Source: Raillietiella orientalis
Taxonomy: Eukaryota
NCBI GenBank assembly: GCA_036172245.1
Contig: JAYWIR010000014.1
Coordinates: forward strand, 1,984,001 to 2,048,000
Length of the DNA stretch: 64,000 bases
Direction of reading: 5' to 3'
In this document: piece after piece, positions 39,591 through 64,000 of the stretch
How the letters are laid out: each line of letters opens with the position of its first letter
Numbering within the stretch: the stretch's first letter is position 1
Translations under genes and position numbers: made by a program
The notes under the pieces: generated by a model
What the model was told of the DNA's origin: nothing
Seen by the model: the letters and a program-made list of their open reading frames with translations, nothing else
The model's database searches: none

Positions 39591-39662
39591 AGCAGAGTGG
39601 CGCAGTGGAAGCGTGCTGGGCCCATAACCCAGAGGTCCGTGGATCGAAACCACGCTCTGCTA
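39591..39662 (+). tRNA. tRNA-iMet: Initiator tRNA-Met (CAT)
   Basis: AGCAGAGTGGCGCAGTGGAAGCGTGCTGGGCCCATAACCCAGAGGTCCGTGGATCGAAACCACGCTCTGCTA shows an A1:U72 pair, three G-C pairs in the anticodon stem, a CAT anticodon and the ATCGAAA T-loop characteristic of eukaryotic initiator tRNA. Confidence 0.98.
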
Positions 39663-41509: not shown

Positions 41510-44500
41510 CTTTCCCCAGTCCGACTCGCGGTGGAGTGAATTTATTTCAATAAACATTCACACTACATACACTCAAACAACAAAAACGCGGTTACTGCCG
41601 CCGTCCATGTGGGTACAACACTACACCGTCCTGGCCGCAAACAGCCCTATCCGGAGGCAGTGTAGTAAAGTCTAGGATGGGACTCTTCCACATGCTCGGA
41701 TATTAATTTCCCTTTTTAAGAGTGCACATAGAACGTCCAGGGCACTGCACACTTGACTATGGGAAAGTTTTGTTCTTCTTATGAGGATACTCCTCATGAA
41801 GGAGGTCGCGATCACTCTTACGGTGGGGTTGTAGCGGGGTACTCCGTTTTCGCCTTCGAAGAGTCCTCTCAGGATCTCCAGCATCGACGTTTCCTCCATC
41901 CGCACCGCCCTCTTTATGGTTTTCCAGTTCCGCACGAGGGTGCGACAGGTGTAGATGTGCAGGTCATCTTCGATGGACCCACACCCTGGGCACAGGTCGT
42001 CGTCGAGATTTCTGGTCCAGTGTTGAAGCCTTGTGCCACACAGGATGCCTCCGTGATAAAACATCAGGAGGCACTCCTGAATGTCCGGTGGCAACGAGAA
42101 TCTCCATAGGACCGTCCCGATTGCCTTTGAGTCGACGGCGGGATTGCCTAACCGCGACTTCATTTTTCGCGCTGCCTCGGATGGTGATGTTTCCTTGGAA
42201 CTGAGAGGGTTGTTGTTCAGGAGGTTCACCCTGGACAACTGCGTGCCTTGATCCTGCCAAAACTCCCGGGTCCTGTGAGTTATCCTCCTTTCCAGTTGCT
42301 TTTTTTTTTTTATATGAGAGGACTCGTCGTGCGTGTATAACCACGCTGTTCGACAGTCGCTCGCATGCCTCCATGATCACTTTCCGGGTCTTCTGGATCC
42401 ACATTCCCGTTTCCCAAGGGACGCTGATAAACAGCGGGATCACCTTGGTGGGTTTTTTGCTCCATAGCTCCTTTCTCCTTGGCACAATTCGTAATCTGAA
42501 GGTCCATATCAGACTCTGGATTCGCAGCGACGTTGGGTCCACTTTGTCCCAGTCGCCCGCGGTGAGCGCCCAGGCGGACATGAGGCCGTCGGTTCCGTGC
42601 ACCAGTCTTGCGAAGGCGCGGTGGAACGCAAACGGTCACTCGTCCCCTGCGCTAACCATTCGGACCAGATGTTTGAGGTCCTGGAGCTTCACGGCAGTGG
42701 CGACTTCGCGCATGCAGGTGCCTCCTTCCGTCCGCGGGCGACACAGGTACTACAACTTCGTCTTGGGTCTTTTGCCGCTCCACACAAGATTCCTCTGGAT
42801 GTCGGCCAGGTCTTTTGCCGTCCTTTTAGGGAACGCTAGAAATGACGTGGTGAAGAGAAACTTCGACGCCATGATCCCGTTCCAGAAGTTTGCCCTGTCG
42901 TTCTGCGAGAAGGATCTTTCGGTATATTGGCTGATTTCTTCGCGTAGCTTGGCCAAGATGGTCGACCATTGCTGCGATTACAGGGCAGGTGTTTCATCGC
43001 CGATGTGTACCCCGAGGTACTTGACACTTGACGCTGTCTGGAAGCCGTGGGCGTGGAGGACGGTGACGTCCAGGATTTCCACGGCAAGCAGATGGGACTT
43101 GGGATTCACCTTGAGTCCAATACCCCACTCCATGGCCTGAACGACGTCCAGGAATGCCTCCTGGTCCCGCTCGTCAGACATGAAGAAAAGCAGGTCATCG
43201 GCGTAGGCCAGGTGAGTGATGTTGAGTTCTTCGCACAGGCCAATACCCTTGAGTCGGCTCTCGTGTTGAACGAAGGCACTTACTGCCTCCATGTATATCA
43301 CGAAGAGCACCGGGTTCAGGGTATCTCCCTGTCGGACTCCTCTTTCCATCTTGATGTTGTGCGACGATAGCCCTTTCATGCTAATCGAGAAGTTGGCCTC
43401 CTTCAAGGAGTGTGCCACGTGCTGCACGAATCTCCCCTGGAAGCTCAGCTTTCCGAGGATCTTCAGCAGCATGGCGTGGTCCACCGAGTCGAAGACCTTC
43501 TCGATGTCGGCAAAGCCCAGCACCAATCCTTGCCCAGGATACAAGTGTAAGCCAGGAGGACCTGGGCGCACTTCAGGTTATCCCACATGCATCTATCTGG
43601 CACGGCACACGTCTGTGTGGGGGAAACCACCGACTTCATGCATTTGTGCTGCTTGTTGGCCCAGATCTTCACCATCCATTTTGCGTCCGAATGCAGGACG
43701 GATATGGGCCTCCACTGGGTGACGTTGCGGAGGTCCCCGCCGCTCTTGGGGAGCGGCCTCATCCTGCTTCGGTGAAAGGAGGCGGGCAGTCGTTCTTCTC
43801 GGTCGATGCACTCCAGTAGCTGACGAAATAGGAGTAGGTAGTCGGGCAGGTGTCTCGGATAGTGCGTCATGGAACGCTACCAGGACCCGCTGCCACATCC
43901 TTGAGCAATCCGTTGAACGCCGCTTTGACTTCTTCGACGGTTAATTGCTCTTCCAGGTCATATAGTTCTTGGGAGGTCAGGCGTTTCTTCACTCAACGGA
44001 GAAGCCGTTCCTCGCCTCCCGGGCCCAAAGTCCTTCTTGAGAATAACTCAGAGTAGTGGTGCTGGAGAGCTTCCAGCACTTGCTCCGAGGTCCGGTAGTC
44101 CTTGTTTTAGTAACGGATATGAAAGATGCCCGTTGCCAAGTTGCGTTTCTACAGCCGTACGATGTCCTGTTTGACGCTCCTTTCGAGGAAGAGCCTCTGG
44201 TACTGTTCCCAATACTCAGAGTGGGAGGGATGGAGTTGGTGGTCTCCCTGTACGCTTCCTCGTGGAGGTCCCTGTCGCCGTATTGCATGTTCGAGAAGAG
44301 ATGCAAGGTGTGTTTCAGGATATCCCAGTCGTCCACGCGCAGGATGCTGGTCGTGGAGAGGATGGTTTCCACGAGGCGCTGGTACGGGGGACAACGTTCA
44401 TACCACTCGGGCATGCAGATGAGTGCCATCCGGGGCATCGCGTTTTCTTTCCTGGGATTCCTGGATGCCATTTTCCATTTCAACAGGGGATGATCCGAGA

Positions 44501-45193
44501 TCCCGGTGTTGAGCTCTCGGATCCCCTAGGTGCGATTCGCGAGAGTTTCCGAACGCAGGACGTAGTCGATGCGCGTCGAGTTTGCCCCCGTGCATAGGAG
44601 GGAAAGTTCTTCCACCATGCATCGGTAGATGCCGTTCGCACACGACTCGTCGTGCCGCCTGCCGTCCAGGTGGACGTTGAAGGCGCCCGCGATCACTACG
44701 ACGTCTTTCGAGGTGACCTTGTTGTTGATTAACTCTGCGAGTGCTGTTGCGAACTTTCTTGAGGAGCAGGAACTCTTCGTTATTTCCTTGCCGACGATTA
44801 CGCCGTTCCTCGCGGATGACGGAGCCTTTGAAACTAGGGCGGACGCGGCCACGCTCTCGTACGACGGCACTGCGGGTGTGCCTGACCTGCTGCCGCAGCT
44901 CCCGACGTCTGTTCGTCGCGATCTCCGTGGGCGGTCCAGCTTTCACTTCCATCCTCGGTATCTTTTCCTTCCTCTTCCCCTCTTTGCTGGTTTCCTCCTC
45001 GTGTGGCTGTAGAAGACTCCATCTTCCACACTAGCACTGAACACTCACTTTGTCACTTTAGGTTTGCCCGCTCGGGGCACGCAAAAATTGCCTCGACAGC
45101 GGTATTTCACGCTGCCTTGGCGGGGTATTGGGTAAAGTTTTCAACTAGCAATAATCGTGCCCCCCTTTCTATCTGCTGCTGCGATATTGCCCG
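41510..45193 (-). mobile_element. Degenerate L1/Tx1-like non-LTR retrotransposon (APE endonuclease - RT - CCHC), internally deleted, with 15-bp TSD
   Basis: APE motifs IAGAFN, TRIDYV and ISDH; RT motifs LPKSGGDLRNVTQWRPISVL, DIEKVFDSVDH, GVRQGDTLNPVLF, LAYADD and VKYLG; C-terminal CPGCGSIEDDLHIYTC. Multiple stops and frameshifts. Flanked by a perfect direct repeat TGATTTCATATTTGT at 41495-41509 and 45194-45208. Confidence 0.93.
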
Positions 45194-45309
45194 TGATTTC
45201 ATATTTGTTCTAACGTGATAAGGTGTGTCTGCCACCCGGATTTGAAAATAAAAGTACAAGCAAATGTTCCTGTGGCGAACCGCTTGGTTCACCACTTTAT
45301 GGCAACTTG

Positions 45310-46863
45310 TCATTCACCGGTTGTGACACTGGCGAGCTCTGTTTCCGCAGAGAATGGGACGGGAAAAACACAAACAAAAAGTACAACAAGGGTGTGTGAG
45401 ATGTTCTGGAGGAAGAGAGGGCAGGGAAGGGATCACTGCTCTCTGGGGGACGTCCTCTATATCCTATTCAGGATACCTGCAAGTTGCATCCTTACATTGC
45501 CCAGGTGGGGCCATCGGGATGCGGTCCTCAAAAAGAGACGTGTCCAATGGATGGCATCCTTGCCATTCTGTCCTCTTCTCGATGCGTTCCAGGACACCAG
45601 GATTCCTCGAATGCAGCACAGAACTGCCAAAGCCGCGGCCCGGAGCAGAGAGGTACGCATGAAGAGGAGCTTAAAAATGTCCCTGGGACCACCTTCGGGG
45701 ATGTCTAGGATCGTCGACGGACGATCGAAGAAGGATCGGAGGGTGGCACAGTCAATCACAGGGTGCGGCAGAGTCTCTTTGACACCGCACCTTTCGCAGC
45801 GCACACTTCCTCGTGAGTGAGGCGTGCTTTGCATGGGAGTCCCCAATGCAACACTAGCAACGCCATTGCATGGGGAGGGTGCCATTGTTCCAACATGCTG
45901 GGGGGTCACTTCACCCCCCTGGGGGTATCGCGAGCAGCTCGCCCCAGCGTAAAAGTCCTTTAAGCAGGACACTCCGGGTCGCAGCGTGCGCTAGCTGCCG
46001 AGTTGTCCACGTTTTGAAAAGTTTTTCTCCTGCCTCCGATGAGACAGGACACTTCCCACGTTTCCGGTTCGTTGCTGTCCCTGGAGATCTCGAGGGGAGG
46101 CAGCACTGGGGCAAGGAGGGTTAACGAATGCCCATAAAAGCTTCTGTGGGTTCTGCACGATCTCCTGCAGGGTCTGCCTAGCGTGCCTCTCTCTCCGGAG
46201 GCAGGCGTAGTCTGCCTCGCTCGGGCCGGTGATTTTTCTCCATGAGGAAACTGACTCCTGAAGCCAGACAGTGCAGTTCGGGGGAGGTGGGAGATCCAGG
46301 CGTTCTCCTGGACCACAGCAACCATCCGACGCAGCTGAGGGCCAACGTGCTTCTTCAGGCAGCCGTCATGGGCCACAGGAATCGATAAGAGTCCTTCCCA
46401 GCCCGTCGCTCTTTTGGCCAGGAGGCGTGCTGGCGCGCACCAAGGCGTATTCCACAGTTTCGCCTACAGGACGACTATTCTGATCTGGAGCTGAAGCTCC
46501 ATGCTCTCTAACGTAAGGAGGTCCAGTCCACCGTCCTTGTGTGGAGCGCACAAGTCTTTCAGTCGGACTCGGGGCCTCCCTGTGCCCCACAGAACCTTTC
46601 TTGAGCAGTTCCGTTTCTTCATGTGGGAAGGGGGCGGGACAAACAAAAAGCAAAGAGAGGAGGAAGGGAGCCGCGAACGCGTTCCACACCGCGGCCCACT
46701 CCTGCAAGTGAAACTTGCCGTTTTGGAACGGGCCGGGCGCCATCCCTACTTTTTGGAGACGGCCGGACCAGACTTCTGCTATGCAGAAGTCCCCTAACGG
46801 AACACCGAGGTACTTGATGTACCGCTCGTGGGGATCGCCAAGCGTGATGACGTTAATTCTCAA
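45310..46863 (-). mobile_element. 5'-truncated L1/Tx1-like LINE fragment (family B, copy 1)
   Basis: YIKYLGVPLG, LWGTGRPRVRLKDLCAPHKDGGLDL, QLRRMVAVVQENAWIS and CERCGVKETLPHPVIDC followed by AAALAVLCCIRG; frameshifted. Confidence 0.85.
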
Positions 46864-49800
46864 TAGTGTCCATTTTTTTGTGATTCATACACATATGTTT
46901 AATGTCGCGAGATTCCATGTTTCAATTCTGTTTCAAGGTACGAAGGATCTGAGAAATTGATTGCGTAGTATTGTAGAATGACTTGCATGCTTTTATCTGT
47001 GACCCCTATTCTAAAATTTGAATACAATCACATTTGAGTTCGAAACGTAAGAATCAGTCTCTTCGCATATCCTTATACCTTCTTCAGCGCTTTGTACGCT
47101 CCCAGATGAATGTATTTCTACTGACATATTTCTAAATCTTATACGCGTGTCCCACTGATGAAAGCGAATTCTGGCTGCAAACTCGTTTGCTAGGTGTGAT
47201 GGAAAAAGTCATGAAAATTCTGGAGGGAACAAAATGCAGGAAAGAATCAGTGAGAGGAAATAAACCGAAAGCAAGTAAAATATACGAAAGCATGATGACC
47301 ATGAAAACTGAAGAGGCACCTCTCACCCCAGTTTTATCGCCGTGTCAATGGAAGGTTTCTCACTCTTCCAAAAAAAAAATCAAGCATTCTCCTGAAAGGA
47401 ATTAACGAGCAGACCAATTTAATGCACTTGTTCCTGTTTGTTTGTTTGCAGGAAACACAGACAAAGCGTGTTTCAGAAAACACACCCCACTGTTCACGAA
47501 GTGTAAGAACGATGCCGAAAATCTTGCAGGAGTGACAGTGAACTACGGAGGAAAATATTGCATCTCGGCACGATTCCCTTTTGAAATGTAGGATCGATTT
47601 TACGAGACTTTTGTGTATTTTCTGCGGCATTCAACTTACGTAGATGTCTTCTAGCGATCCTTCTATCGAGAGGAAAGGGTAGGTTGCACCGGGTTTCTCC
47701 ATTTCCATTTTGCAAATTACCTGCCATGCATGACGACTGGAGGAACATAGAAGCATCTCAATGAACTCAAATCTGTCATCATTACGACTTGTGTCAACAA
47801 GGTATCCAATTTCTCCTGGAAGTTTGGGTTGAACTCCTAAATTTGATTTCCCCTTGCTATGCCTTCCTGCACCATCGGTCAGTGATTCCAACGAGGGAAG
47901 ATCATCAGCTTCTGTGTTCTTCTGGCTTGGATTTTCTCCCATCCCGGACTGCACGGTTCGCTTCCTCATGCGACCACGTAAGAGCCACCGGATGTGCTTT
48001 CGTAATTGCTTGCTTCCATAATCGTCTCATCCCGGGATTTATCCTTGTCTGTTACTTTCATCGGGTCCTTGGACGCATCTGCTTTCTTGAGGGTCGACCT
48101 CGTAGCTGTCTCGATGTTTTGCAGGTGAGGAAGGATGATTTCCCTCCACAGTTGTCAATGTTGACACCAGCGTATCGCCTTCCGGGAATCCTGCTGCTTC
48201 TTGAGAATAATTGACCGTTTCTGCATTAAGGGGGGAACTGCCAGGGCGCTACGGCTACTGTTCCCGGCAATGTCCTGCCCCGCAACTGGATAATCGGGGT
48301 GGCTTGGTCGTGTGGGCCCATCGGCTAAACTTGCGACTTACGGTTGGTTTATCCTGACGTGTTGCTCCCAGTCGAGATGACGCAAACCGCACTTGCCAAA
48401 CGCGGGACTGGTAGAAACTTGCAGACGGGTTCGCAGGGATGGTTTGGCTTCTGAGGTCTTTTTCGTGAACTGAGAGAGAAAGGCCTACGGAAATAAATGA
48501 GAAGATGACTGGAGAGATCTCGCCGGGTCAATAGTTCCATCAACGCGCCGATGCATTTCCCGACGAGTGCAGATTTTGCCAATCGGCTGCTGCACTTGAC
48601 TGCAGCATGGGGAGCGTTCTGCGAGCGCACGCGTGTGAGTGCCCTTCGGACAACTTGACACTTGGCAACTCGATTTTCACTGCGACACTCCAAAAGGCCA
48701 AAAAAAAGGAACGAAAAGAAAAGAAACGGACGCTGCCACTCTCTCGGTTTATGTGGCATTCGCTGTCGCTCCTGAGAAGGGAAGAGTGCAGACGACCTTT
48801 TCGCCCACCTTCCGAAGTGGTGCCTTTTGAGTTCGGTGCTGACAACAACCAACCAACAGGCAAACAAACGAAAGAAAAAAAAACCTCCAGTGCAACCAGA
48901 CCTCAGAAAGCGCGTTCATGCTTGCATACCCGGGACTTCCTTCCTCGTATTTGCTCCCGGTTTCACACCTGTCAGAGGATGTTTTTACGCAGCGCTACAA
49001 GGCGCAAGCCGAAGCGTTTCCCGTGCTTCCACGTGCGTACGAGAAAGTTCACTGAAAGTGTGCGTCTTGGCAGACACAGCCGCTGGTGTTCCACTTGAGA
49101 GTATTTACAAGTCTTGCAAATGTGCACGCAATTCCGGGTCGAACAGCACGCGGCTGCGAAGATGCACCGCACTCTTGGACGCGAATGCGCAACAAGCGCT
49201 TGCTCGTTTTGCGGGTCGATGACGTCACCGCGAATCGATGGCGGAACGCGGGACGCTCGGGTGCCGATCAGCTGTCGGAACTGGAAGATGTGTCGGACTG
49301 AAGTTCCGCGAAGATGACGGGTAGGATGTGTTCCAGAGAGCCGTTTCCGAATTCCACTTTCCAGAGCAGCGAGGAGGGCGGGTAATCGGCTGAAAGTTAT
49401 TCTTCACATGGGGGTCCTTGCGCGGAATGTGGAAAGCCCTGGGCAAGTCCCGAGAGTATTCATTTAACTCTACGAAGATCCAGTGAGGATTTGCATAGAA
49501 GGAGACGAGAAATCCCGAACTGCAGAATTTTCAAGAGGCAGCCCAGGGAACAAGACGCAGACTCACACTATGAGGTCATACATCCGGTAAGGGGAAAAGC
49601 AGCTGCAACGAAATGGGACGGCCGACCCACAGTGCTGACGGCGAAAGTTTCATTCAGTCAGTCCCTTTTTTTTTTTTCTATGACTATATCTAAAATTAAC
49701 CTGACAGCCGTTGAAAGTTTGCTGTTCTTCCTTTCTGTCCTCGGAGGCGTAAGTCGTCAAGGAGGGCAACGGATCTCCTTGGGCCCAGCTGAAGGCCTGC

Positions 49801-49941
49801 TTACGCCATTTCCATGGAGTCTCTCCATGCCAAAGCGAACCGCTGGAACTCGCCAGTGTCTTTCTTGGTCCCAAGAGGAAAAACAAAGGTGTGCAAAAGA
49901 TCTGTGGATGCATCTGACACCAAGACGTTCCATGTTTTCGA

Positions 49942-50809
49942 TGGAAATCCTTTTGGGTTCCTTTCTGTCTTTCTGGCTGCTTTCCTTGCCGCCTTTTTCT
50001 TTTATTTTTCATTTCGGGCTTCCTTTTTGGGGGGCTCGCCAAGTGCTGAAGAACCGTCGCGCTCTTGGAGGCTCACGCAGCTCCTTGACCCTGCCCGCGC
50101 CGCCCGGGGGTGCGTGTGATTCTTTCTCAAGTTATAGGGGATATCCCGGAGGAATACCGTGTGAATCCAGGAAGGGCTCAGGAGCAAGGAGTCCATCCCT
50201 CTTGAGCTTGGTAGGGGAAGCCCGAAGAGGAACCCACCTCTTCCCCATTCTCTCCAGGGGGTCACCCGACTTGCGGGGACTGCTCCTCGTTTCTTCTCCC
50301 AAAAAAACCGGGAAAGGATCCCCTCTCGGAATTTCTTCTCCGGAAGGCACCCCCACAAGGGAACCGCCCCTTGTTATCCTGAGAGGACGCTCCCAAATTT
50401 TCACTAGAGGGCGCTCCCCGAAGAGAGCAGTTCTTGACACTCTGGAGAGGCATCAAAGCTCCATGGTACTGGATGGTGGGTCCTCCCCGAGGGAGAGGAC
50501 GGCTCCATTTTTATAACCGCAGGGTAGTCCCAAAGGTAACCGGCCCTTTGATGTCTTCGAGGGAACCCGGGGGGTTGACTTTCAATCCTGGCCAGTAGAT
50601 GGGGGCATCCGGGAGTTTCCGGCTGCTTGCACCAGTGCTGCACCCGAAAGCTGTAGGGCAACCGGCGTCATCCTGCGGAGAGGAAGGGAGACTCGAAACC
50701 CACGACTCACCCCCCGTTCTCGGCCGTCGATCCTCTCCCGGGTGGGGATTCGAACGTGCAACGCTTGGTGCCACGCGCGGAGGCCGCAGCAGCCGCCAAC
50801 GTGGACTTA
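49942..50809 (-). mobile_element. ~870 bp non-coding SINE/MITE-like element, copy 1, with 12-bp TSD
   Basis: Homologous to 57428-58332 and 58850-59645. Flanked by CCATGTTTTCGA at 49930-49941 and 50810-50821. B-box-like GTTCGAATCC on the - strand (50746-50755). Confidence 0.8.
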
Positions 50810-51099: not shown

Positions 51100-52790
51100 T
51101 GCAAACTTAGTGCCGACGATGCGCTTTCCGGATACTATGGCCGCTGCGAGTACCATCTCCCGAAGAAGGACACTGGGGACTTGAGTCTGCAGGGTGAGCT
51201 TCTTGCCGGAGCGCCTGTCTCGGTTGCAGGTTTTCGTCCAGCTGCCTCGTCTCTGGCAGGCGGAGGTGGGCTCCCATATGCAGCGCCTCGGCTGCGCCGC
51301 GCATTGGAACGCACCGTTTAGCGGACCCCCCGCACCGCCGTTCCTCCTGGCGACGTGACCGGGAGTGTCGCACGCGAGGATCGAGCCGCGGCTCTCCCCA
51401 TCCCCTCACCACTCCTCTTTCGCGCGTACGATCCGCGCCCCTCTCCCCTTGCGCTCTACCTTCCCTTAGGGAGCACATGGGCAGCAACGTTACGGCTAGA
51501 TGGAAGGTTACTGTGGAAATCTCCGGAAGGAGAAAAGGACTGGACGAGTGGACGACGGGCCAGCTTACCGACTCTGAGACTCCGGTTGCTGGACCTTGTG
51601 GGCTTTTGCGTTGGGGCGTGCTACTGGGTCTACAGTGGCCCCTGATGCTAATGAACACCCGCACCCTCCCCTTAAAATGGCAGGAGTCGGCATTGATGCT
51701 GCTACACCGGGGCATCCCGTGCACCGTGCACCGCCGGCATCATGTGACTCAAAGGTGGGGAAGATCCAAACTGTGCCAGGTGCGGGGAGAGGAAATCCCT
51801 CCCTCACCCCCTAGTGTTGCCCTCCGACCCATTTGGGAACGCTTTGCAGCGACCCTTGGAACCCCCAGCAGCAGCGCCAGAGACTTTTTAAAGCCCCTCT
51901 TGCGCAACGCCCTCATGCCGGCCGCATCCCCAGCAGCACTCTGCTGCCTATGCAGGACCGTGGCTGCATAGAGCAGCAACGCCAGAGTCCAGGACGACAG
52001 GGACACCATCTATTTCACCGTTCTTTTCATGAGGAGAGCGTCAAGATGGCCCCATCTGGAAGTCTTGAAACAGGAACTTGCCTGCATCCTTACAAGGATG
52101 GACGTCCTCCAGCACACAGTGATGTAGCGCCTGGAATCCTCGCAGACGAACTCCCGGTCTTCAAAGTTCGCCTGGGGCGGCTCTGTGCTCTTCCTCCGAC
52201 TTCCGCGCAAGACGGCGTTGTCTTTGAATCGAGGTTTCCCAAGCAACTCGTCTTGCCTCAGGGCAGCGAGTGGTTACCCCGCACTGCGTGGTGATCCAGC
52301 ATCCCATGTGTGGTGTCTTTTTGTCGGGATGCGGTCCTCTCGTGCCCGACAGGCACCATTCGGGTTTTCTTTCTTCAGCAGGGACTTTCCGCGACCTCGG
52401 CAGTAGCGATACTGTGCTTCCTCGTTCGCGGCACCGTGGTAGCACGCCTGAAGCGATGAACACTCCAAGAAGAGAGGGAGACACTTCTGGATCTTTCCAT
52501 GGTGCGCCAGCAGGTGTGGCTTCAGCTAGAGGCAGTCGACAGAGGAAAACCCAGTCACATCGTCCAGGGGCACAGAAGGGGTAGGGGTTGGATTGGGCAC
52601 TTACCACTAGTTCCTTTCCCTCGCCCCGCCAGTCCCGTGCCTACTCATTTATTGTCTCCTCCGCTTTGGTGCACCGTGAGCAGAACTGCGCTTAGAGGAT
52701 TCCTCCACTTATATTTGTACACAAGGGCGCGAGATTTCCTTGCTGCCGTTTGAATGCTTCTTTCACTAAACGTCCCGGCGCAACCGGGTT
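51100..52790 (+). mobile_element. LINE family B 3' fragment (copy 2)
   Basis: LMLLHRGIP...ARDFLKPLLRNALMPAASPAALCCLCR is homologous to copy 1. Terminal hairpin CCCGG-CGCAA-CCGGG at 52774-52788. The 5' boundary is approximate. Confidence 0.65.
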
Positions 52791-53231
52791 TACGAGGACC
52801 ACTTCTGGGAGAGCATCAACTTTGTTTCAAAAGGAGAAAGAAAAATAACCTAAGGGTAGGGACAATGGACGACCTTGCGTGTTAGTTTTCTACGCTTCCG
52901 TGGTCCCCAAATCAGCAAGCCCGAAAGGTGAATGGCATTGGTCGTGAGGCATTCCCTTGTCAAGGAGAGTCTCTGGGTAAGGGGCCGACCACGTGCCCTG
53001 TTGGATAACACCGGGCGGATCCAGGAAGCTTTCTGTACACCGGGTGTCACCCTAGGTTTCCCGATTGGATCAGCTTCACACGCGCTGCTCGCCCGAACTT
53101 ACCGTTTGCGAGTGGTGCCTTCTAAGAGCGGTGCGCGAACTCAGGCTTGGAAGGCGTTCGGATTGGAAAGGTCACTCGCCCACGTCCTCGACCCACTGCC
53201 TGTGAAATTCTCCCTTCGAAACTGAGATGCA

Positions 53232-54900
53232 TTTTCACCCGGTCACGCCGGTGAAATGGACAAAAAATATTGACCAAAAAAAAACGGTTACGTCTAAATA
53301 TAAAAACGTCTTCCTTCGTGGTGGTCTCACATGACCACCACGAAGGGAAATGCCTAGGAGGGAGGGGCTGCTTCGCGCGAGCAGCTTCCCCGATGAGGTC
53401 CGCACAGGAAATGTGGGGGAAGGGGTAAACAAGGGCAAAACACACACACACAAAAGTTCAGTTTAGAAATGTGTGGGATGGGGGGGGGGGTGATCGCAGA
53501 TTTCTCCCCGGAGTCCTCAGCATCCTTTGGAGGATGTTGGCAACTTCCTCCCTTTGCCGACAGGGATGCAGCCATCTTGTCGCCTTCCTCACGAGAGAGC
53601 AGACGACAGTGATTGACCTCACAAGCCGACCGGCCTCTTTCGGTGCGGCTTCTCGCCGCCGCCGCATTCCCACGAAGGCAGCACAAGACTGCGAGGGAAG
53701 CTGCGGGCGACATCGCGTCGCGCGCGAAGTGGCTCCGCATGACCTCTTTGCCGCTGTCCCCCGGGAGTGGGAGGGTCATCCATTGGTGGACTGGCGCGCG
53801 TTGCATGGGATCTCCCAGCGCAACAACCGTAGTGCCGATTCGCACCACTACAGAGGATTTCCCGCCCAAGAACGGGGGGATTCCCACCTCTTCTGGAGGG
53901 ACGTCCAGGAGTTCCGTCTAGCAACGGATTCCCCTGGGAAGGGTGGCACGGGTTCGTGCGTCGGGCAGTTGACGCGCCGTTCAGCATCCCAGCTGCTTCT
54001 TTTTCTCTCTAAACGGTTCTCATCTCGCAAGGCCATCTCCATGTCCACTTTGTTGGGTTGTGTTGAGCGTGGCTTCAAGTGGGGTGTTCCCGCACCCAAG
54101 TGGTCATCTGTGGGCGGTCCATGATTTCTTGCAATGAGTAGTGAGCCGTTTCCTGTTTCCAGACACCGCGGTTAAGGCAGGAGGGAGGGAAGGAAATCCA
54201 TCTGTTCTCCTGGACCAAGGCGACCATTTTCCGGAGTTGGTACCTCTACCGGGGTGACCCTCGGTGGCTATGCACGAGGAACGTACCGAGTTCCTCGGCG
54301 CCTCCGGCTGCTCTCTTGGACAGGAGTCTGGATGGGACGCTCCAATGGGTAACTAAGCACAACCACCTGGACCAACCAGTCGGAGGAGCGACTCAGGGAA
54401 ACTGGGAGTTGGCAGACTCCGACCAGCTGATACTGGGAATCGACCAGAAACTCCGGGCGGATCTGTTGCTCCAGAACGAGTTGAGGGGTCATGCTTTCTC
54501 GATACTTCTTGTCCGTCTCGTCTCGATACGTCCGCTTGAGAGTCCCGATGCAGCTTTGGAAGGAGCTCATCGGTGGGAGGAGACTGGGAGCTGCCTCTCC
54601 TCTTCGCCGCAAGAGGAGTAGCACCGACTTCGGCGCGGTAGATGCTGTCCAGTAACTCTGGGACCTGAAGAACAAGGTGTTCAGGGAAACTCAGGGTCCC
54701 TCGCACGCAGGCTGGAAGCCTGGAGTGGAGAACGGCATGCGCCCCCACACAGCACAGCTGGGATATGCGCCGGGCGCGTGCTCTGGGCAGGAAACCACGT
54801 ATCCTTCGGAACAGGTGACCAGAAGATGGAACCCTCCTGAAGATCCCTTTTACTCAACAAAAGTTCTGAGCGTGATATCGCCACAAATTCCAAGCGACAG
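53232..54900 (-). mobile_element. LINE family B 3' fragment (copy 3)
   Basis: QLRKMVALVQENRWIS and AASLAVLCCLRG match copy 1. Terminal hairpin at 53233-53256. The 5' boundary is approximate. Confidence 0.7.
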
Positions 54901-56821
54901 TGCAGATGATGAGTGAAAATAGGCGAGCCCTTCGCTTTCCTTTTCCAGGGGACGTCTCGTTGAGGCTGTCCTTGGTCGGGGAGCTTCGAGCTCACCCTCA
55001 CCGCACATCCTTGCACATGGCATATCCCAACGGAGAAGCAGCGTCATCCAGTTACGACGTTCTGGAGCTGCTTGATCCCAGTTCACACATTGGATGGAAA
55101 CTTCGCGAAATTCGGAAACGAGGAATCGTCGTGAAACGCGCGCAAATTCACTTTCATGCGTCATGCCATGTCCACTAGAGCAACCGCTTGCTCTGATGCC
55201 CGGTTTTCGCGCCTCCTTTTCGAAGCGGATCGTGCCCGCCCACGCGTCGGGAAGAAGCGCACACCACCTAAGGTGCTGCATTCGGGAAACGGTCCGTGCT
55301 CTCAAAATAGCGCAGTGGAATCCCTGTAGTGCTGCGTTGACCTTTGCGATCTGCGGTTTCAGGTCAAATCACCGATTTTTGTGAAGATGGCGGTTCCATG
55401 GACGCAACTTTGCGCCCGCCATGTGTTAAATCTCATCCCCTGCCCGCCATTTCCCACGGGTTTTCAAGTCTGACAACCCTCGTACGTTTGCGTTACTTCC
55501 GGTTCCGAGCGGTCTCATGGCTTCCCTTATGTTCTTTCGAAACTTCTTGGCACCGTCGCCGAAGACTTACCACGTATTCCTATGCATGGCTTCTGATTGC
55601 ATGGACCCCAATCGTATCACATTTTCCTTAAACCATGCCCCTCTTTCCAAACGGCATATAAGTTTGAGAGACAATCTTCTGCATCTGCTGCACCTTGCAT
55701 CAACAGAGGAAGCGATGGTAGCTTCCTCCGTTGATGCAATCATCCGATTACTTCCTTCCACTGATCAAGAAAATAAAGTAAACGCAGCTGTGGCAACCGT
55801 TTCCCCATCAACGTTCGCTAATGCAGTTTCCGGATTCACGATGAGACGTGTTGCATTGAATCCGTGCTGCCATCTGGTCCTTTTCAATCCAGAAGAGTTT
55901 GGGGCGAGCAGATGATCCTGTGCTCCACGAAATGTTTGTGTTTTCAAGAATTCCTTCTGTATTCCAAATGCCTGAGATGCTTTTAAAGCTCATATTATCG
56001 ATCTTCCTTTTGCGTAATTGGTATCACACAGCTTCTGTGTGTTCTATCAATACACTCTGCAATGCTTCTTGAATGGCTTTCTGATTCATCATTAACAGAT
56101 GAAGCGCTCTGCACACCATGTCCCTGACGGATGAGTATTCGGAGCGGACATACGGGAGAAGGGAGAACCCGTTCCCAAAGGAAGCAATTGAAGCTTTCGA
56201 CGGCAGATCTGCTCGAAATTCACATCATCAGCTGGTTTCCATAGCATCGGCTATCGGTTTTCCACCTTCTTCGAAACAGTCCGTTACGATCAACAGATCA
56301 GGATGCTGTTCGTGCGCAGTACCTTTCTCGAGAAGTGAAATTCAGGAAAAGCTCGAGCTGAACCTTTGAAGAATTCTAGAGGGAATTTTAGAATTTATGG
56401 CTCGCTGCCAGACGGTTGGACAAGCCCGGCGTGAGGGAAGAAAGCAGCAGCAACAGATTCTACCTCGGAGGAACCGCAAGCTCCTTTCCCCCCACGCTTC
56501 TGTTGGCATCGGGGGGGTTTTGAAAGAAATAGCTCCAGCGTCAGGACAGTGGGCAAGGATGGAACCTAAAATTTCATGCTCCAGGGCCGGTGAGACTTCG
56601 AGGGATGAAAATCGGATCGAACTCTAAAGGCATCACCATCCTCGTAAAGCGGAGCGGCATCAAGTAATGTGGGCTGCAGAGGACTTGAGGCCCCACAAAG
56701 AGGAGAAGAACTCAATGCTACGTAGTTGGTAGGAGCCTTCAGCGAAACAGATGATGCGCCCGAGACCTTTGGAGGGAAGGATGCGAACATCAGCCTCTGG
56801 CGCCACGTCGAATGCTGCTTT

Positions 56822-57427
56822 GAGCCCGGTGACGCCGGACCGTTTATTTCATAAGTAAAATCAACACACGAGTGACACTTGTGCAATTGTGGTAGAGGAA
56901 CGAACTTGGGTGGCCCCCGACCCCATGCGGGTGCAGGCCCGGAGGGGTCTGGATTGGGGAGTGAGGGACAGTGTACAGTAAATCCTATGGGAAAAGTATG
57001 AGAAGGGGGGAGGGTAAATAAGACATCTATGTGTTTATCGGGAGGGAGGGGGACTGGGGGGATCGGGGGTCTGACTAGACCGAACATCCTAGCCCTTAGG
57101 CGATGGTGGATTTTGCGATTTCGTCCCTGATGTTTGCTGGAAGCGAAGGCCGTCGAAGTGATCTCCGACGGAGGGAGATCTCCTGGAGGGGGAGGGGAGG
57201 GGGCAGTGCTCCACGTCGATCGCTTCCTATGCTGGAATTACAGCAGCATTCACGACAGGACTACCCCGCGGAGGAAGCAGAGGAGCGCAACCACCTACGA
57301 TACGGGGAGTCCGTTGCGCTGAAGGAAACGCCGGATGGTGTCCTTGGCGCTGTCGGAAGGGGGAGAGATGGCACGGGCCGAGTGCTCCCGCCCTCTTCAG
57401 ACTCCCGAGCATTCGAGCAGAAGTGAT
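56822..57427 (-). mobile_element. LINE family B 3' end (copy 4), abutting or interrupted by SINE-like copy 2
   Basis: LLECSGV...AKDTIRRFLQRNGLPVS*VVALLCFLRGVV is homologous to the other copies. AATAAA followed by CCGG-CGTCA-CCGGG at 56825-56848. Confidence 0.65.
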
Positions 57428-58332
57428 GATGGAAATCCTTTTGGGGTTCCTTTCTGTCTTCGCTGTTTTCCTTCCAGCTATTTTTTTTTTGGTTCTCGGC
57501 CTTTTGGCTAAGATCAAGATAGCTAGGCACTTCAAGAACCGTCGTGCGGGCGGCTCACGCAGCTCTTTCACGCTTTTCCGCGCTATACGAGGGTGCATGT
57601 TAGCTCTCCAATTTATAGGGGGCACCCCGGGAGAGGACCACCCTATCAGTCCAGGAAGGGCTAAGGAGAAGGGGAGTCCGTTCCTCTCACGCCTGGGAGG
57701 GATCACCGAAGGGAACCTTCCACCCTGGTTGTCTCTGAAGGGAACTCCGAGGGAATCACCTTCCTTATTCTCTCCTGAGGGACACCCGGAGGGGGCCGCG
57801 CTCCATTGTTTCTTCTTCGAAGGGAACCCGGAAAGGATGCGCTCTTGGAATTTCTTCTACGGAGGGCATCCCCGCAAGGGAACCGCTCCTTCTTCCCTCC
57901 TCTGAAGAGAACCCCGAAGGAACTCCTCCGAATTTTCTCTGGAGGTCGCTCCCCGTGGGGGGCAGCGCGCTTCTCGGCACTCTGGAGAGGTATCAACCAG
58001 CTCCATAGTACGAGATGGAGGGTCCCCCCTCCCTCCAAGGAGGGGTAGGTCTCCTTTGTACAACCGGAGGGGAACTCCCACTCCTTAATTCTGTTTCCTG
58101 GAAGGACACTGGAGGGTCCACTCCCAATTCCGGCCACTCATCGGGGCATCCAGTTTTTACCAGCTTCTACCAGAGCCTCACCCGAGTTGAGGCCATTCAG
58201 CGTCATCTAGCGGAAGGAATTCGAACCCACGTCGCACCCTCTGTTGTGGACGTCGATCCTCCACGACTGGCGCCACGCGCGGAGACCGCCGCTACGCAGC
58301 CTCCGACGCGTGCGGCGGAATCTGCTTCCCAT
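57428..58332 (-). mobile_element. SINE/MITE-like element, copy 2
   Basis: Starts (+) GATGGAAATCCTTTTGGGGTTCC as copy 1 does, shares the same body, and has B-box GGGTTCGAATT on the - strand at 58218-58228. Confidence 0.8.
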
Positions 58333-58849
58333 CGCCGCGGCCCTGTGCGGGAATGCACGCTTGCCTGAAGCGTGGTGTCCTGGCGTCGCCATGCAGGAAG
58401 GGGAGCGTGGCGTCGGATGCTGTTTCGCTCAACGAAGAGATGCGTAGCTATAAAAAAAAAAAGGAGGTTGCTGCTGCATAGCAAACTCCTCTTTGATGCC
58501 AGCCTTACTCTGTAAGATGGGAAGCAGCAAGACCGCAGATGCTGCGGAGCTGAAGTGCTTATCTTCCGTGGCAAGAACTGTCCCTGAAGTTCCTGCTGGA
58601 TGGAGGTTCTCGGTGACCGCTGCCTGGCAACAGCGTCTACCCACATCTTCCAGAGTCGTTTCCACGAATGAAGACATCATCGATTAGCCCCCTCTCCCGA
58701 AAAAAAAGGCAACGGCCCGCGTCTCTCCGATTCACTCAACTTCTGGGCCTGTTCGCTTCTGAGGCAGGTCAGCATTGCGGGTTAGACAGGTCACATTTGT
58801 GAGACGAGGCAATCAACGACGACACACTTCCTTACGGCGTAGTAGACTC

Positions 58850-59645
58850 GCCTCTTTTTGGTTAGCCGAGGACCTCAAGAACCGTCGCGCGCCTGGTGGG
58901 CGGCTCGCGCAGCTCTTTATCGCCGTTCCACGCCTCCCGAGGGTGCTTGTGATTATTCAAGTTATAGAGGGTACCCTGAGAGACCATCCTATGAATCCAG
59001 GAAGGGCTCCGGAGGAAGGAGTCCGTTCCACTTACACTTGGGAGGGGAATCCGAAGGGAACCTCTTCCTTATTCTCTCCGGAGGGATCCTCGGAGGGGTT
59101 TGCTTCATTTTTTCTTCTCTGAAGGGAACCCGGAAAGGATCCGCTAGTAGGAATTTATTCTCCGGAGGGATCCCCCGGGAAGGGAACCGCTCCTGTTTAC
59201 TCTGAAGAGAACCCCGAAGGGACACTTCCGAATTTTTTCTGGAGGTCGCTCCCCGTGGGGGGCAGCGCGCTTCTCGGCACTCTGGTGAGGTATCAACCAG
59301 CTCCATAGTACGAGATGGAGGGTCCCTCCTCCCCCCAAGGAGGGGTAGGTCTCCTTTGCACAATCGGAGGGGAACTCCCACTCCTTGATTCTATTTCTTG
59401 GAAGGACCCCGGAGGATCGACTCCCGATTCCGGCCACTCATCGGGAGCATCCGGTTTGAACCGCTACCAGTGCCGCCCTCACCCAAATGAATATGAGCCA
59501 GTCAGTGCCATCTAGCGGGAGGAACTCGAACTCACGACGCACCCCCCATCTACCGGTGTAGATTCTTTCCGAGTATTCGAACCCGCGACGCTTGGTGCCA
59601 TGCCTTGAGCAGACCACAACCACATGGACTCCGACGCCTGCTTCT
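58850..59645 (-). mobile_element. SINE/MITE-like element, copy 3 (one end truncated)
   Basis: Long near-identical blocks with copy 2 (e.g. ctggaggtcgctccccgtggggggcagcgcgcttctcggcactctgg). Two tRNA T-arm-like motifs on the - strand: GTCGCGGGTTCGAAT and GTCGTGAGTTCGAG. Confidence 0.8.
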
Positions 59646-59737
59646 TGGGGCGGGACCCTGGAACGCAAGTCGCCTGGCGGTCGCGTTCCCCCATTGCTCC
59701 ACAAATCCCATGGCACTCCTTTCTGCAGAAGAGTTCA

Positions 59738-59764
59738 TTGTTTGTTTGTTTGTTTGTTTGTTTT
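59738..59764. repeat. (TTTG)n microsatellite
   Basis: ttgtttgtttgtttgtttgtttgtttt read directly from the sequence. Confidence 0.85.
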
Positions 59765-59899
59765 GGGTGGAGGGGATTTCGGAAACTCCTCAGAAGGAAC
59801 TGCAGCATCTCGAACTGGCTACAAAGGCCTCCGATTTGGAGTTCCCCCTCTTTCTCATGAAAAGGGGGGAGGGGAGGATTCGGTCGCCACCGAATGGCC

Positions 59900-61458
59900 G
59901 GTGGCTCTCCGATGCTCGGCCCTCCTTGTTGGAATCACGAAGGCGATCCTCTGAAAAGTCCACCTTTGTCTCTCTTCCAGGGTCCTCGTTCGTCAGATGA
60001 GGCTTCAACTCCTCGGACCATACTCCGAGGAGCTCGTTCTACAGGCCGCAGTGCTTTCATCGGAATTCCCCTCGGAGGTCATCTACCTCGGGAAATGACC
60101 TCAGATCCCCGGAAACCTAAATACCGCTTCAACTGCTGCCAAGACTCCCGCTCTGGAACCTGCCGTCTTCCTTCTTCCCGGATCCGCCTAAAAGATTTGG
60201 TGGTGCCGCTCCAGGGTTCCGGCTTGGTCATCCTGACCCTCCGCCAAGTCGGACTGCGAGTGCAGTCCCGTCTACGCAGGCTCTGTGGGGAGTCGTGGAC
60301 TTCGTGGTGCGCTCTTCGCGCTGCAGCCGGCGTAGGATGCCTGTTTTCAGCTACCCCAGGGGGTATCTGTCCTCCCTGCTGGAAGTTCAACTATGGATCT
60401 CCCGCCACCCTCCAAAACCGGAACGCCTGACGGCAGGAGGCACTGAAGTCCTGGGTCACCACTCTGGAAGCGTGCCCGGAGGAACTTCGCCCACTGCGGA
60501 AACTCCTACGAAAACTGCTAGGAGATCTGCAGGACTGGACGCCGTTTCCCGGATCGTCGTCACACTCATTGCCGCAGCACCGTCTGCCCTCAAGATAAGC
60601 AATGACAGCAGCCAACTGGCGGGGTGAAAGCTGTCCTGAAGAATTGCTGGAGTGGAGGGACTCCCCGACGGCTGCAAGACAAGAGGGTTGGACGCCTCTA
60701 CTCCTTTTTCTGGGCGGAGGGACTCCCTCGGTGGAGCGACCTGCTTGTTGTGCCCTCGAAGAACTCGTGGTCCCTTCCCTGCATGTGGGCACCTCCGTGT
60801 TCCCTCTCCGTTTGCAGCGGAGAGGGAACCAGGAACGCTCTGCTGTTTGTTCACCGGGGAGATTCCAGTGCAATCAGCACGGACGCCTGCTTTCCGGGGG
60901 GGTCGCCTCCCAGAACTGTTTGGGGTGCGGAGCGATAGAATCGTTCCCGCACCTCTCTCATTGGACTGCAGTGTCCTCGTGGACATTTGGAGGGGACTGG
61001 CTTGGGCGATCCGCTACCCGGAGGACATCGTTTTGGACTTGCTGCGGCAACTCTTTTTCACGCACCTGCTGTCAGCCCGCCGTGACCGCAACGAGATCTT
61101 GCATCTGTGCCATAGTAGCAGACCACTCCGTGATGGAATCTCGTTAGCAGAGAAGGGAGGCCACCCGAATGGCACCGCCTTGATGAGAACCGCTACGAAG
61201 TGGCCTCATCGGCAAGAAGAAGTCACCAGGGAGATCGTCAGCATTCCGTGCCAGCTCCAGGAAGAAAGGAGTGGCTGAAACCAAAGACTCCTGTGCGTAC
61301 CCTCCCCCTTTTTTTACTTTATTATCCCTTCCCTTTCGATCCTGAGTCCCTTAAAAGACGAACTGCGAGCTGGTGGTCATCCTTAGAGGACTTCTCTTTT
61401 TTTTTGTGACTCACTTCATTTATTTTTAAGTAAACGACCCGGCGTGACCGGGTACAAA
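59900..61458 (+). mobile_element. LINE family B-related 3' fragment (copy 5)
   Basis: SRIRLKDLVVPLQGSGLVIL, CLGCGAIESFPHL and LMRTATKWPH (compare FLRTASRWPH in copy 1). Terminal hairpin ACCCGG-CGTGA-CCGGGT at 61437-61453. The 5' boundary is approximate. Confidence 0.75.
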
Positions 61459-64000
61459 ACTATGCGGCGGTGGAGGCGCTCGAAGGAAGCTTTGCTTTCA
61501 GCGAGAATTTCCGGGAAGCTGAGCGTTACTGAGGCATCATCTGCAAGGAAGATGTGAGCGAGAAGCCGCGACGGTTCTATTCTGGTGCGGGACGCGACTG
61601 CTGGCACTGCGCTACAACGGCCTGCAAGCTGATGGTCATCCCCGATGGATTTTATTTTATTTTTTGGCATGTTTTTGTATTTAGAGAACACCTTTCCCTG
61701 ATTTGAGGTTTGTTTATTTTTTACATAAGTGTTCCGGCGTGATGACCAGGAACAACCTGGAACCCCGCTCACCAGTTTGCGTGCCCAGGTTTTCCAGGGC
61801 GGGGCGTGTGGAAATGTGGGTCCCAGTTTCCTGGCAGCCGGTTCCCGCTCGTAGGGAGCGTTTCAAGAGGCGGACACCTCAGGAGATTCCGCGAGAGTGT
61901 TCCTGTGCGAATCCAGGCAACGGGGGGACTCTCGAATCCTGAAGCACCAAAGGGGAAACCCTGACGAAAAGAAAGGCACGGAATCTCTCAGGGATGCAGA
62001 GCAGGAATCTTTGCTGTGGAGCAGGAAGGATCACGAAACGCTCTCCGACTTCCTGCGCGCATCTGAATGTCTGCTCGGATACATATTAGTTCCAAGTTGT
62101 GGGAGATAAGGGCTGTTGACGGTAACGAAGAGGACGTGGGGAGGTAGAGGTGGCGGGAAAAGGAACAGGGAGGGGGGGGGGGGGGGAAGTCGAACCATTG
62201 AAGTGAGCGGAGGGGTAAATCCACACGTTCAGATCGGGAATAAGCGATTCCCGGGAAAAAGTGAGAGCAGGGACAGGGAAAGAATCGATACTGAAAACGT
62301 GCGACGGGAAGTCAAGCTGACCTCTACTCTGAAAATCGCGAGGTAACGGGTCACGGTGACACGGGAGCGACTGCGCTGGAAACGGAACTGGAATGGACCG
62401 TTGGTCCCACGAGCACGCGAAGAAGAGGGATTTTCCTTCTTTCGTTCGTTCCTACCGGAAGGAAGAAAAGAAACGTTGTTTCAGGGTCTCGTGAGAGACC
62501 CACAGCAGCGGATTAAGCCCGGAAGAAAGAGGAGATCGTGATCGGAGACGAAAGAAATCGAATTCCTTTCATGGCGAGGGGTTCACGCGTACGGCACCGG
62601 CACACTTCCTCACCTTTCGTCAGTGCTCGTCCTTCTCAGCAGGGATCGAAAGCAGATTTTTATTATTTCTCGTAGAAGGTCACGCCACCTCCGATCGTCG
62701 TTTAAAGTGAAGCTGACTGGAGTTGCCGAATTGACGCTCGAGGTCCAAGGGAGTAATCAAAGGGGAAAGGGGGTGAGCGAGGAACGTGATCAGAAACCAA
62801 CTTCACTTGAAGCAGACCTCTAGAGTGGGTGTCGGCGCCCCGATCGTCCGAAACGCACACCCCAGTTCATGCTAAGTACGGTAATGCAATTTATTTTCCT
62901 GCAGACCCTTAAATTGCACTTCACAAGCCGACATGGCGTTGACACGTGAAGTGCAATCCAATGGTCTGGGGAGCAATCGATCTTCTGGACTGTTCTGCTG
63001 TGAACGAAGATCGGAAGAGGGTCATAAAGGGGACGACGTAACATACAAATCAGGGGAAACGGCAGCATCAGGACTCGAGCTGCAGGACAATCTTCACACT
63101 AAAGATGGACCTATACAAAGGATTCCCGTCGCTAACTTTTCATACTCGGGAGCTTTTCATCTTAACCGCGCCCTGAATAAATGTGCCGAAGGTTCGAAAG
63201 GTTTCGAGAAGACGGTCGCGCTTTGCGTTTCCTAAAGATTTGTGTAAGCTGCGTTATTGCTGCCTTTTGTTCGAAATTACAAACCTTGAGCAGTCCTAAA
63301 TAATTAAATGGCCATTTCGAATGCCATGTGCGAGTCCGCTATCCTCGGAATGAAAAGTATCGATTACTATAAATAAAAGCAGTTCTGGTGTCCCCCCCCC
63401 CCCCAAAGGAAGCCTCCTCGCTGTCCAATTTTCCAGTCATCCCTAGCCTTTGATTCAAGGAACGCTGTGGGAAAGTGCGTTTCTTAGAGGCGATCAGGGA
63501 AAGATGGATCCACGTTGCCTCAATAAAGGATCTTTCGGGAATCCTGTTTCCATCTTTCCTGAAGTCTGTCTCTTCCTTCCCGTGCGAGTTTGCAGAAAGA
63601 CTATGCATCCCAGTAAAACGGGTAAATCCACTGTAGGAAGCAACCGGGCTCGTTACAAGGTGTCCCCCTCAGCCACCCCACTAATTCACAAACAGCTAGT
63701 AGCTCGGAGCACGATTTTCCCCGGTTTCGATCCGTACCCCACTTCGCATAACCACAGGAGAGTTGACCGGGCTGCGGAGGGGAGGCAAACTGGTATCTGG
63801 GAACCAAAATCTCGGGGCACACGGGGCCAGTTGGTTCGTGGATTCCCGTTACCCAGCACGGAAGCAGTTGCGAACGCATGGCGGGGGGGAGGACCCAGCA
63901 CTGTGGACAAGTAAATGACTCACGTGGACACTTTTCAAAATCTGCTCTTCGACGTGCACGCCTAGCGCTTGCAGAGCACCTACGAGCCATTAGTTTCATG

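Follow-up and report, generated by a model that had tools for sequence, protein, structure and literature searches.

Stem-loop tails are the rule in most clades of long interspersed nuclear elements (LINEs), and elements of the L1 clade are the textbook example of "relaxed," poly(A)-dependent priming. In stringent LINEs, the protein encoded by the second open reading frame (ORF2) binds a 3′ stem-loop, as shown for zebrafish L2 elements (PMC4176376). Stringent lineages have been described within the L1 clade as well, namely the monocot "1a" lineage (LINE1-1_ZM, with ZmSINE2 and ZmSINE3) and Chlamydomonas L1-1_CR, and these plant and algal lineages have been used to argue for a stringent ancestral L1 (Ohshima 2012, PMC3472496). 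According to Table 1 of that paper, L1 families without any 3′ repeat number 9 of 233 in flowering plants and 5 of 15 in green algae. Here, we analyze a 64,000-nucleotide (nt) stretch of the genome of Raillietiella orientalis (assembly GCA_036172245.1, contig JAYWIR010000014.1, positions 1,984,001 to 2,048,000 of the forward strand; "the window" hereafter), in which we compared seven 3′ ends of LINE-like copies. Four of these ends (A, B, C, and D) carry the same CCGG-type hairpin motif, read in the sense of the element, at the end of the copy and with no poly(A) tail behind it. A fifth (H) is a decayed CCGG-type candidate, and the last two (E and F) have other hairpins at the same place, E being bounded by a target-site duplication (TSD) that defines its terminus exactly. 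The ends are as follows.

52774 to 52788, plus strand: end A, hairpin CCCGG-CGCAA-CCGGG, 3 nt after ACUAAA (52765 to 52770), followed by TTTACGAGG, with no A run
53233 to 53256, minus strand: end B, hairpin TTTCACCGG-CGTGA-CCGG(G)TGAAA, a 9-bp stem with one bulged G, followed by ATG
56823 to 56841, minus strand: end C, hairpin GGTCCGG-CGTCA-CCGGGCT, 7 bp including G-U pairs, 1 nt after AATAAA (56843 to 56848), followed by CAAA
61437 to 61453, plus strand: end D, hairpin ACCCGG-CGTGA-CCGGGT, 2 nt after AGUAAA (61429 to 61434), followed by ACAAAA (61454 to 61459)
61731 to 61753, plus strand: end H, decayed candidate GTTCCGG-CGTGATGA-CC(A)GGAAC, 1 nt after CATAAG (61724 to 61729)
41514 to 41536, minus strand: end E, terminal hairpin CTCCACCG-CGAGT-CGG(AC)TGGGG, 4 nt after AATAAA (41541 to 41546)
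45272 to 45295, minus strand: end F, hairpin GTGGTGAACC-AAGC-GGTTCGCCAC, a perfect 10-bp stem directly after CATAAA (45296 to 45301)

The CCGG-CGNNA-CCGG pattern, CCGGCGNNACCGG, has four matches when both strands of the window are considered, at 52775 (+), 53239 (−), 56826 (−), and 61439 (+), and all 12 of its specified bases are identical in A to D. In 100 dinucleotide-preserving shuffles of the window, the mean was 0.02 matches and the largest number 1, so that none reached four. Since the hairpin copies are related by descent, this count measures conservation rather than four independent events. When read in the direction of the adjoining element, the loop is CG..A in all five CCGG-type ends. 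A sequence-only reading of this DNA, which had first drawn attention to the hairpins, quoted five of them, and each is present where it was placed (the core of B, CACCGG-CGTGA-CCGGGTG, lies at 53236 to 53253 on the minus strand), including CCAC-CGCGA-GTCGG in E at 41521 to 41534 (−). Its description of a GNRA loop in three of the four CCGG-type hairpins is equally accurate (GCAA, GUGA, and GUGA), C having GUCA. A covariance model built from A to D and run over the 64 kb scored these training ends at 35 to 45 bits. Its best nontraining match was H (11.7 bits, E = 0.65), which has a 3-nt loop insertion and a bulged A relative to the CCGG-type hairpin, and four other matches scored 9.4 to 10.5 bits. 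A 20-nt block of the 3′ untranslated region (UTR) is also shared by H and D at 90% identity (E = 0.09).

As for position, ends A, B, and D lie 120 to 500 nt downstream of remnants of an L1-type ORF2 C terminus, their 3′ UTRs being approximately 500, 120, and 180 nt long, respectively. The extents of the copies are given below.

51762 to 52291, plus strand: copy A, ORF2 C-terminus remnant, with a protein match to an open reading frame (ORF) of copy F
53357 to 54350, minus strand: copy B, remnants of the ORF2 C-terminal region, with matches to ORFs of F
56821 to 57210, minus strand: copy C, candidate extent of ~390 nt, noncoding, with an imperfect flanking repeat
59861 to 61275, plus strand: copy D, remnants of the ORF2 region behind the reverse transcriptase (RT) and of the CCHC region, with matches to F and motifs read by eye
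45460 to 46884, minus strand: copy F, ORF2 remnant that extends from the RT end through the CCHC motif, with L1-ORF2 profile matches

Six of the seven ends have an NNUAAA-type hexamer 0 to 4 nt ahead of the stem: AAUAAA in C and E, CAUAAA in F, ACUAAA in A, AGUAAA in D, and CAUAAG in H, with none in B. We take these hexamers to be used variants of the poly(A) signal. The sequence-only reading had three CCGG-type hairpins following a TAAAC/AATAAA motif; a hexamer-like sequence does precede A, C, and D, but AAUAAA itself is found among the CCGG-type ends only in C. The bases behind the stem are UGAAAA in B, CAAA in C, ACAAAA in D, AAAG in E, and UUUAC in A. A poly(A) tail, which is typical though not universal in the L1 clade, is absent from all seven ends, as is a repeat tail. 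Tandem Repeats Finder (TRF) reported three small arrays within 41 to 64 kb, none at a copy end, and none of the 11 A/T runs of at least 8 bases is in tail position, which agrees with the earlier statement that the ends have no real poly(A) tail.

The 3′ terminus is defined most precisely in element E, whose parts are listed here.

41510 to 45193, minus strand: element E, 3684 nt, TSD-bounded, with a U4-like head, an endonuclease-like region, an RT, and the 3′ module
41495 to 41509: TSD, 3′ copy, ACAAATATGAAATCA in element sense, exact over 15 nt
45194 to 45208: TSD, 5′ copy, exact over 15 nt
45066 to 45204, minus strand: sequence like U4 small nuclear RNA (snRNA) at the 5′ end of E (Rfam RF00015, 63.3 bits against a gathering score of 46, complete match)

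The hairpin of E lies inside the TSDs, 4 nt from the end of the element, and the tail AAAG (41510 to 41513) abuts the TSD. The exact 15-nt TSD thus fixes the 3′ terminus of E as AAUAAA, 4 nt, a bulged 8-bp hairpin, and AAAG. The best fold of this hairpin has the loop CGAGU and a free energy of −7.3 kcal/mol. The other end of E is also enclosed, since positions ~12 to 138 of the U4 model lie inside the exact TSDs, with the first ATG (45021) 44 nt later. Thus, the RNA that was retrotransposed to give this ectopic copy carried the U4 sequence at its 5′ end. This sequence represents an inherited head or the product of read-through from a U4 gene target, but not a 3′ tail.

Copy F is a 3′ fragment directly upstream of E. 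Its terminal hairpin, GUGGUGAACC-AAGC-GGUUCGCCAC in RNA letters, is unrelated in sequence to the CCGG type and marks an edge of the GC-rich LINE island, where GC drops. Its fold is strong (−18.5 kcal/mol over 45 nt, z = −3.87), and none of 200 shuffles equaled it. Among the CCGG-type ends, C (−10.6 kcal/mol over 35 nt) and D (−11.6 kcal/mol over 35 nt) were each equaled by 7 of 200 shuffles. The hairpin of A is the minimum free energy (MFE) hairpin (−9.7 kcal/mol over 32 nt), and B folds with −10.0 kcal/mol over 40 nt. In 65-nt contexts, the hairpin is within the MFE fold in A, B, C, D, and F and outside it in E. Only in A and C does the MFE fold include a candidate helix between the hexamer and U-rich bases ahead of it; in E, the flanking bases pair and the hexamer does not.

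The coding remnants indicate what kind of element these ends belong to. The RT of E was recognized by Pfam (RVT_1 at 6e-19), its best relatives being plant L1 ORF2 proteins (35 to 37% identity, E = 9e-16), and E shows colinear matches to a profile of L1-type ORF2s, with endonuclease-type motifs read by eye. Comparison with PDB is nondiscriminating, since R2 protein (1.7e-13) and human L1 ORF2p (2e-11) both match. Copy F gives weak, colinear matches to the local L1-type ORF2 profile at positions 830 to 868 (E = 0.031) and 1001 to 1026, the CCHC region (E = 0.88), where a C-x2-C..H..C motif can be read by eye. The C-terminal ORFs of F in turn match A, B, and D. The F ORF at 45460 to 45990 matches copy A at 51762 to 52100 (37% over 115 aa, E = 2.7e-17), ORFs of F match copy B at 53591 to 53773 (E = 7e-5) and 54183 to 54350 (46% over 56 aa, E = 3.8e-8), and 46434 to 46610 of F matches copy D at 59861 to 60427 (E = 8.9e-7; matched part of D, 60131 to 60274). 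By eye, D has a C-x2-C..H motif and a C-terminal tail motif in common with F. Consequently, A, B, and D are 3′ fragments of L1-like ORF2 elements. Of the four LINE 3′ fragments reported in the sequence-only reading, these three have an upstream ORF2 remnant and C does not. Across copies, the ORF2 C termini are 22 to 57% identical in protein or similar below detection. Pfam found an RT in 2 of the 99 ORFs of at least 100 aa in the window, both within E, and at E ≤ 10 eight ORFs gave no zf-RVT, endonuclease, or RT domain beyond the RT of E. Calling the hairpin copies "L1-like," from the weak C-terminal similarity and the RT of E, thus appears reasonable.

Copy C is most simply regarded as 5′-truncated. 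Imperfect repeats at 57211 to 57228 and 56803 to 56820 (14 of 18 bases) may bound it at ~390 nt, their exact part being a 9-mer of which ~0.8 would be expected by chance. A TSD search for A, B, D, and F returned only 9- to 10-mers at chance level, and the flanks of C, H, and others have no similarity elsewhere in the window.

Several observations concern the surroundings of individual copies. Ends A (+) and B (−) point toward each other, and the 444 bp between them (52789 to 53232) resemble nothing else in the window and gave no match to an L1 profile. The 3′ UTR of copy B contains a second long perfect hairpin at 53318 to 53351 (−), with a 14-bp stem (CCTTCGTGGTGGTC...GACCACCACGAAGG), and a related block, GGTGGTCAT, is present in the UTRs of D and H. 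Directly behind the hairpin of D, at 61454 to 61760 (+) and with the same orientation, lie what are apparently the last 300 nt of copy H, an arrangement that looks like a tandem of tail fragments and may have arisen by insertion into H or beside it. An antisense RT had been read by eye at this 3′ flank of D from an "ADD" box; it has no profile match, and BLASTP against the RT of E gave E = 55. More probably, this flank is the tail of H, a further copy in sense orientation.

Outside the hairpin, the ends have little in common. BLASTN with five segments comprising 800 nt upstream of each end gave no hits at E ≤ 1e-3, and a short-word comparison of the seven ends found only 11- to 23-nt blocks, the best of which is the hairpin itself. 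With the 3′ UTRs otherwise unalignable, the hairpin is a 12- to 14-nt island of conservation. The presence of unrelated hairpins at this position in F and E, the constant loop orientation, and the G-U pairs (5 of 29 paired cells, read as A-C mismatches on the opposite strand) favor an RNA structure, without proving pairing in this window.

In our view, the GC hairpin is probably a cis-acting, stringent-type 3′ terminal RNA signal of L1-like LINE lineages, with apurinic/apyrimidinic (APE)-type endonuclease and RT and a CCHC-ended ORF2, in an arthropod-like animal. The module would consist of an NNUAAA hexamer, 0 to 4 nt, a GC-rich hairpin of 5 to 10 bp with a 4- to 5-nt loop, and an often A-rich tail of ~3 to 7 nt. 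In the RNA, the hairpin would fold and be bound by the ORF2 protein of the element itself, and target-primed reverse transcription would begin within a few bases behind it. Such a start would leave copies that end 18 to 31 nt after the hexamer and lack poly(A). The short A-rich tail might represent the beginning of a poly(A) tail or, alternatively, a templated site for primer annealing. Part of what the sequence-only reading proposed, a stringent 3′ RNA signal in an L1-clade lineage, is retained here, on account of the conserved island, the sense-oriented loop, the missing tail, and the other hairpins at the same position in F and E; its RNA structure and its clade stay putative, covariation being nonsignificant and the CCGG-type copies having no RT.

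A number of results weigh against this interpretation. Some concern structure, for which we used 500 column shuffles of the five CCGG-type ends (A to D and H) as a control. Pairing is 82.9% of 35 cells vs. 77.3% in the shuffles (93 of 500 reach the observed value), and the covariation score is 0.200 vs. 0.121 (28 of 500, with n = 5). A shift of the 3′ partner by +1 performs no worse (71.4% paired, score 0.271). Three of the seven pairs show no variation, and the four core pairs vary little or not at all. Since covariation is not significant, a conserved sequence motif is indistinguishable from a conserved structure in this window, to which all the copies compared belong. The fold energies of A and B are unremarkable (18 and 51 of 200 shuffles as good, respectively), and the hairpin of E is weak (55 of 200); the earlier statement that E "ends similarly" thus applies to its layout and not to its sequence. 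The module is incomplete in end B, which has no hexamer, and in end A, which has no A-rich tail. As for coding content, C and H are without any coding remnant, and no RT was detected in the CCGG-type copies by Pfam, by comparison with L1 ORF2s, or by profile, nor in F. No SINE-like (short interspersed nuclear element) partner with the same tail, and no tRNA, 5S, or 7SL head, was seen beside any end in this one window.

The alternative that survives best, which we nevertheless consider unlikely, is that hexamer and hairpin chiefly form the 3′ end of the RNA, as a polyadenylation enhancer, a terminator, or a nonpolyadenylated stem-loop like those of snRNAs or histone mRNAs, rather than serving as a handle for the RT. 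The missing tail would then reflect where the RNA ends. This would suit the placing of the hexamer 0 to 4 nt ahead of the stem in six of seven ends, and the copy ends (stem ends where the tail is undefined), which fall 18 to 31 nt after the hexamer, the usual cleavage distance. C and D also have CA just ahead of the terminal A's, and E begins with U4 snRNA, which makes snRNA-style transcription and 3′ processing conceivable. However, the canonical AAUAAA accounts for only two of the seven hexamer positions, and B keeps its hairpin with no hexamer at all. No Rfam family matches the ends, the histone stem-loop included: an E-value search returned two chance-level rows in 52700 to 53300 (E = 1.1 and 1.6) and none in 61350 to 61800. 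Moreover, a processing signal alone leaves the tail-less DNA copies unexplained, unless the RNA was nonpolyadenylated or reverse transcription begins at a fixed point, the latter being the explanation that we prefer.

It is quite improbable, in our estimate, that the motif was simply inherited without function, from a fairly recent common 3′ end or through conversion, while the rest of the UTR evolved fast. The near-invariance of the four core pairs and the nonsignificant covariation count in favor of such inheritance, as does the other 20-nt UTR block that D and H have in common. CpG is not depleted in the LINE island (observed/expected ratio of 0.76 to 1.0), so CpG-rich motifs need no selection to survive there. 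This last result also bears on the original idea of a signal "conserved while the ORF decays": dead copies are under no selection, and the conservation is between source lineages. Against mere inheritance stands the discrepancy between the 12 of 12 identical motif bases and the UTRs and ORF2 C termini, which have diverged to 22 to 57% protein identity or beyond detection. In addition, a hairpin is retained at this position in both F and E, although its sequence is different.

Finally, although the CCGG arms are palindromic, the palindrome is very improbably a target-site motif of site-specific LINEs or a DNA cruciform at junctions rather than part of the element RNA, because the sequences before and after the four hairpins are wholly different, the hairpin of E lies inside an exact TSD, loop orientation and G-U pairs follow the element strand, and the antisense RT read by eye at the flank of D failed both profile and BLASTP tests.

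Beyond the preferred reading of the hairpin as a stringent-type signal, we propose tentatively, and with considerable doubt, that several deeply diverged lineages of L1/Tx1-like type in an arthropod-like animal, including snRNA-associated ones, share the hexamer, hairpin, and 3- to 7-nt tail as a "ruler" that fixes the first templated base at or near the RNA cleavage site. This would amount to an animal radiation of the L1 group wholly without poly(A), perhaps with a nonpolyadenylated, snRNA-like stem-loop at the RNA 3′ end.

The right third of the window (~42 to 64 kb, GC 0.52 to 0.58), in which the copies lie, is a pile of decayed repeats. It includes a three-copy repeat family (49940 to 50735, 57428 to 58261, and 58872 to 59544; 67 to 77% identity). 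One member contains, at 57488 to 57543 (+), a segment similar to nucleotides 1 to 31 of U2 snRNA (RF00004, 25 bits, below the gathering score of 46, E = 0.022), which is decayed in the other two, near 50000 to 50060 and 58830 to 58890. Since similarity between the repeat copies begins ~60 nt upstream of it, this segment is not at the very 5′ end. A second GC-rich block at 22000 to 27000 (GC 0.56 to 0.59) has long open frames on both strands; it gave no meaningful Pfam match (EGF_FBN_1st at E = 0.0072, below the cut-off), no similarity to the LINE island, and no match to the hairpin model. Ordinary genes stand beside the island.

972 to 1457, minus strand: exon of eEF2K (alpha-kinase), best matches to arthropod proteins at ~72% identity
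17196 to 19144, minus strand: DUF4457 exons
39591 to 39662, plus strand: tRNA-Met

Searches beyond the window yielded little. A full HMMER search with the ORF2 C terminus of F found one relative (P0028, 87 aa, 59% identity), on one JGI contig of 2870 bp, and an ESM Atlas look-up led to clusters with zf-RVT in 25% of members. A word-index search with 46467 to 46745 of F returned no relatives. In a metagenome scan with the alignment of F and P0028, none of 455 pattern matches was confirmed. A similar scan with the DNA motif AAACGNNCCGGCGNNACCGGG gave 120 loci (mean GC 0.62), none of which is similar to the LINE ORFs of the window or to L1 ORF2 references; they are taken as chance matches in bacterial DNA.

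How do these ends compare with described systems? The stringent L2-clade elements UnaL2 (eel) and ZfL2-1 and ZfL2-2 (zebrafish) belong to a different clade from the L1-like copies here, and they are not known to carry a poly(A)-type hexamer ahead of the stem. A position-specific stem-loop near the 3′ end, proposed as a handle for the RT, is also on record for human L1; that case differs in being a computational proposal for a poly(A)-dependent element, with a longer stem (8 to 10 bp with a bulge) and a long A tail. Similar anatomy is seen in UnaL2, ZfL2-1, and ZfL2-2, which like the copies here have a short 3′ terminal stem-loop and a short tail and no poly(A) (Hayashi 2014, PMC4176376). Their ORF2 binds both stem and loop, a tested mechanism that fits the anatomy seen here (PMC4176376). 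These elements, however, end in short tandem repeats that serve template slippage, TGTAA in UnaL2 (PMC3747384), and the ends here have no repeat unit. SART1, of the R1 clade, keeps and needs its poly(A) tail and is telomere-specific (PMC3472496). The Tx1 group, with Keno in U2 genes among others, resembles our copies in being animal and L1-related and in its association with snRNA genes or snRNA-derived heads, E carrying U4 and one repeat family of the window a U2-like segment (Kojima 2015, PMC4494074). Its SINEU partners have poly(A) tails, in contrast, and hairpin ends do not figure in those descriptions (PMC4494074).

Close in kind are monocot 1a and L1-1_CR. They likewise combine an L1-type ORF2 with last tens of bases that are far better conserved than the rest, can form a hairpin, and are read as recognized by the RT (PMC3472496). 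The sequence-only reading had raised the question of whether its signal was already described in the clade, and in part it was, as L1-clade stem-loops with other sequences and with poly(A) retained (PMC3472496). There are several differences: monocot 1a and L1-1_CR end in poly(A) repeats, which the copies here do not; their conserved bases (loop UCU, 3′ flank CGAG) are not those of our hairpin; and their hosts are plants and green algae rather than an animal (PMC3472496). Compensatory changes and SINE partners have been shown for these plant and algal L1s, and neither for the copies here (PMC3472496). A keyword literature search, which was not exhaustive, returned no account of L1-like LINEs in arthropods that end in a hairpin and lack a tail. 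For annotation, the module provides a sharp marker of LINE 3′ boundaries, which aids in parsing the dense nests of this genome. If the preferred reading is true, its compact 25 to 30 nt would offer a system for studying the choice of template and start site by L1-type ORF2p, and an animal L1-like group without poly(A) would be an independent data point for a stringent ancestral L1. Together, these comparisons place the animal L1-like group, with its hexamer, hairpin, and short tail and no poly(A), as a variant of the known stringent LINE 3′ ends.

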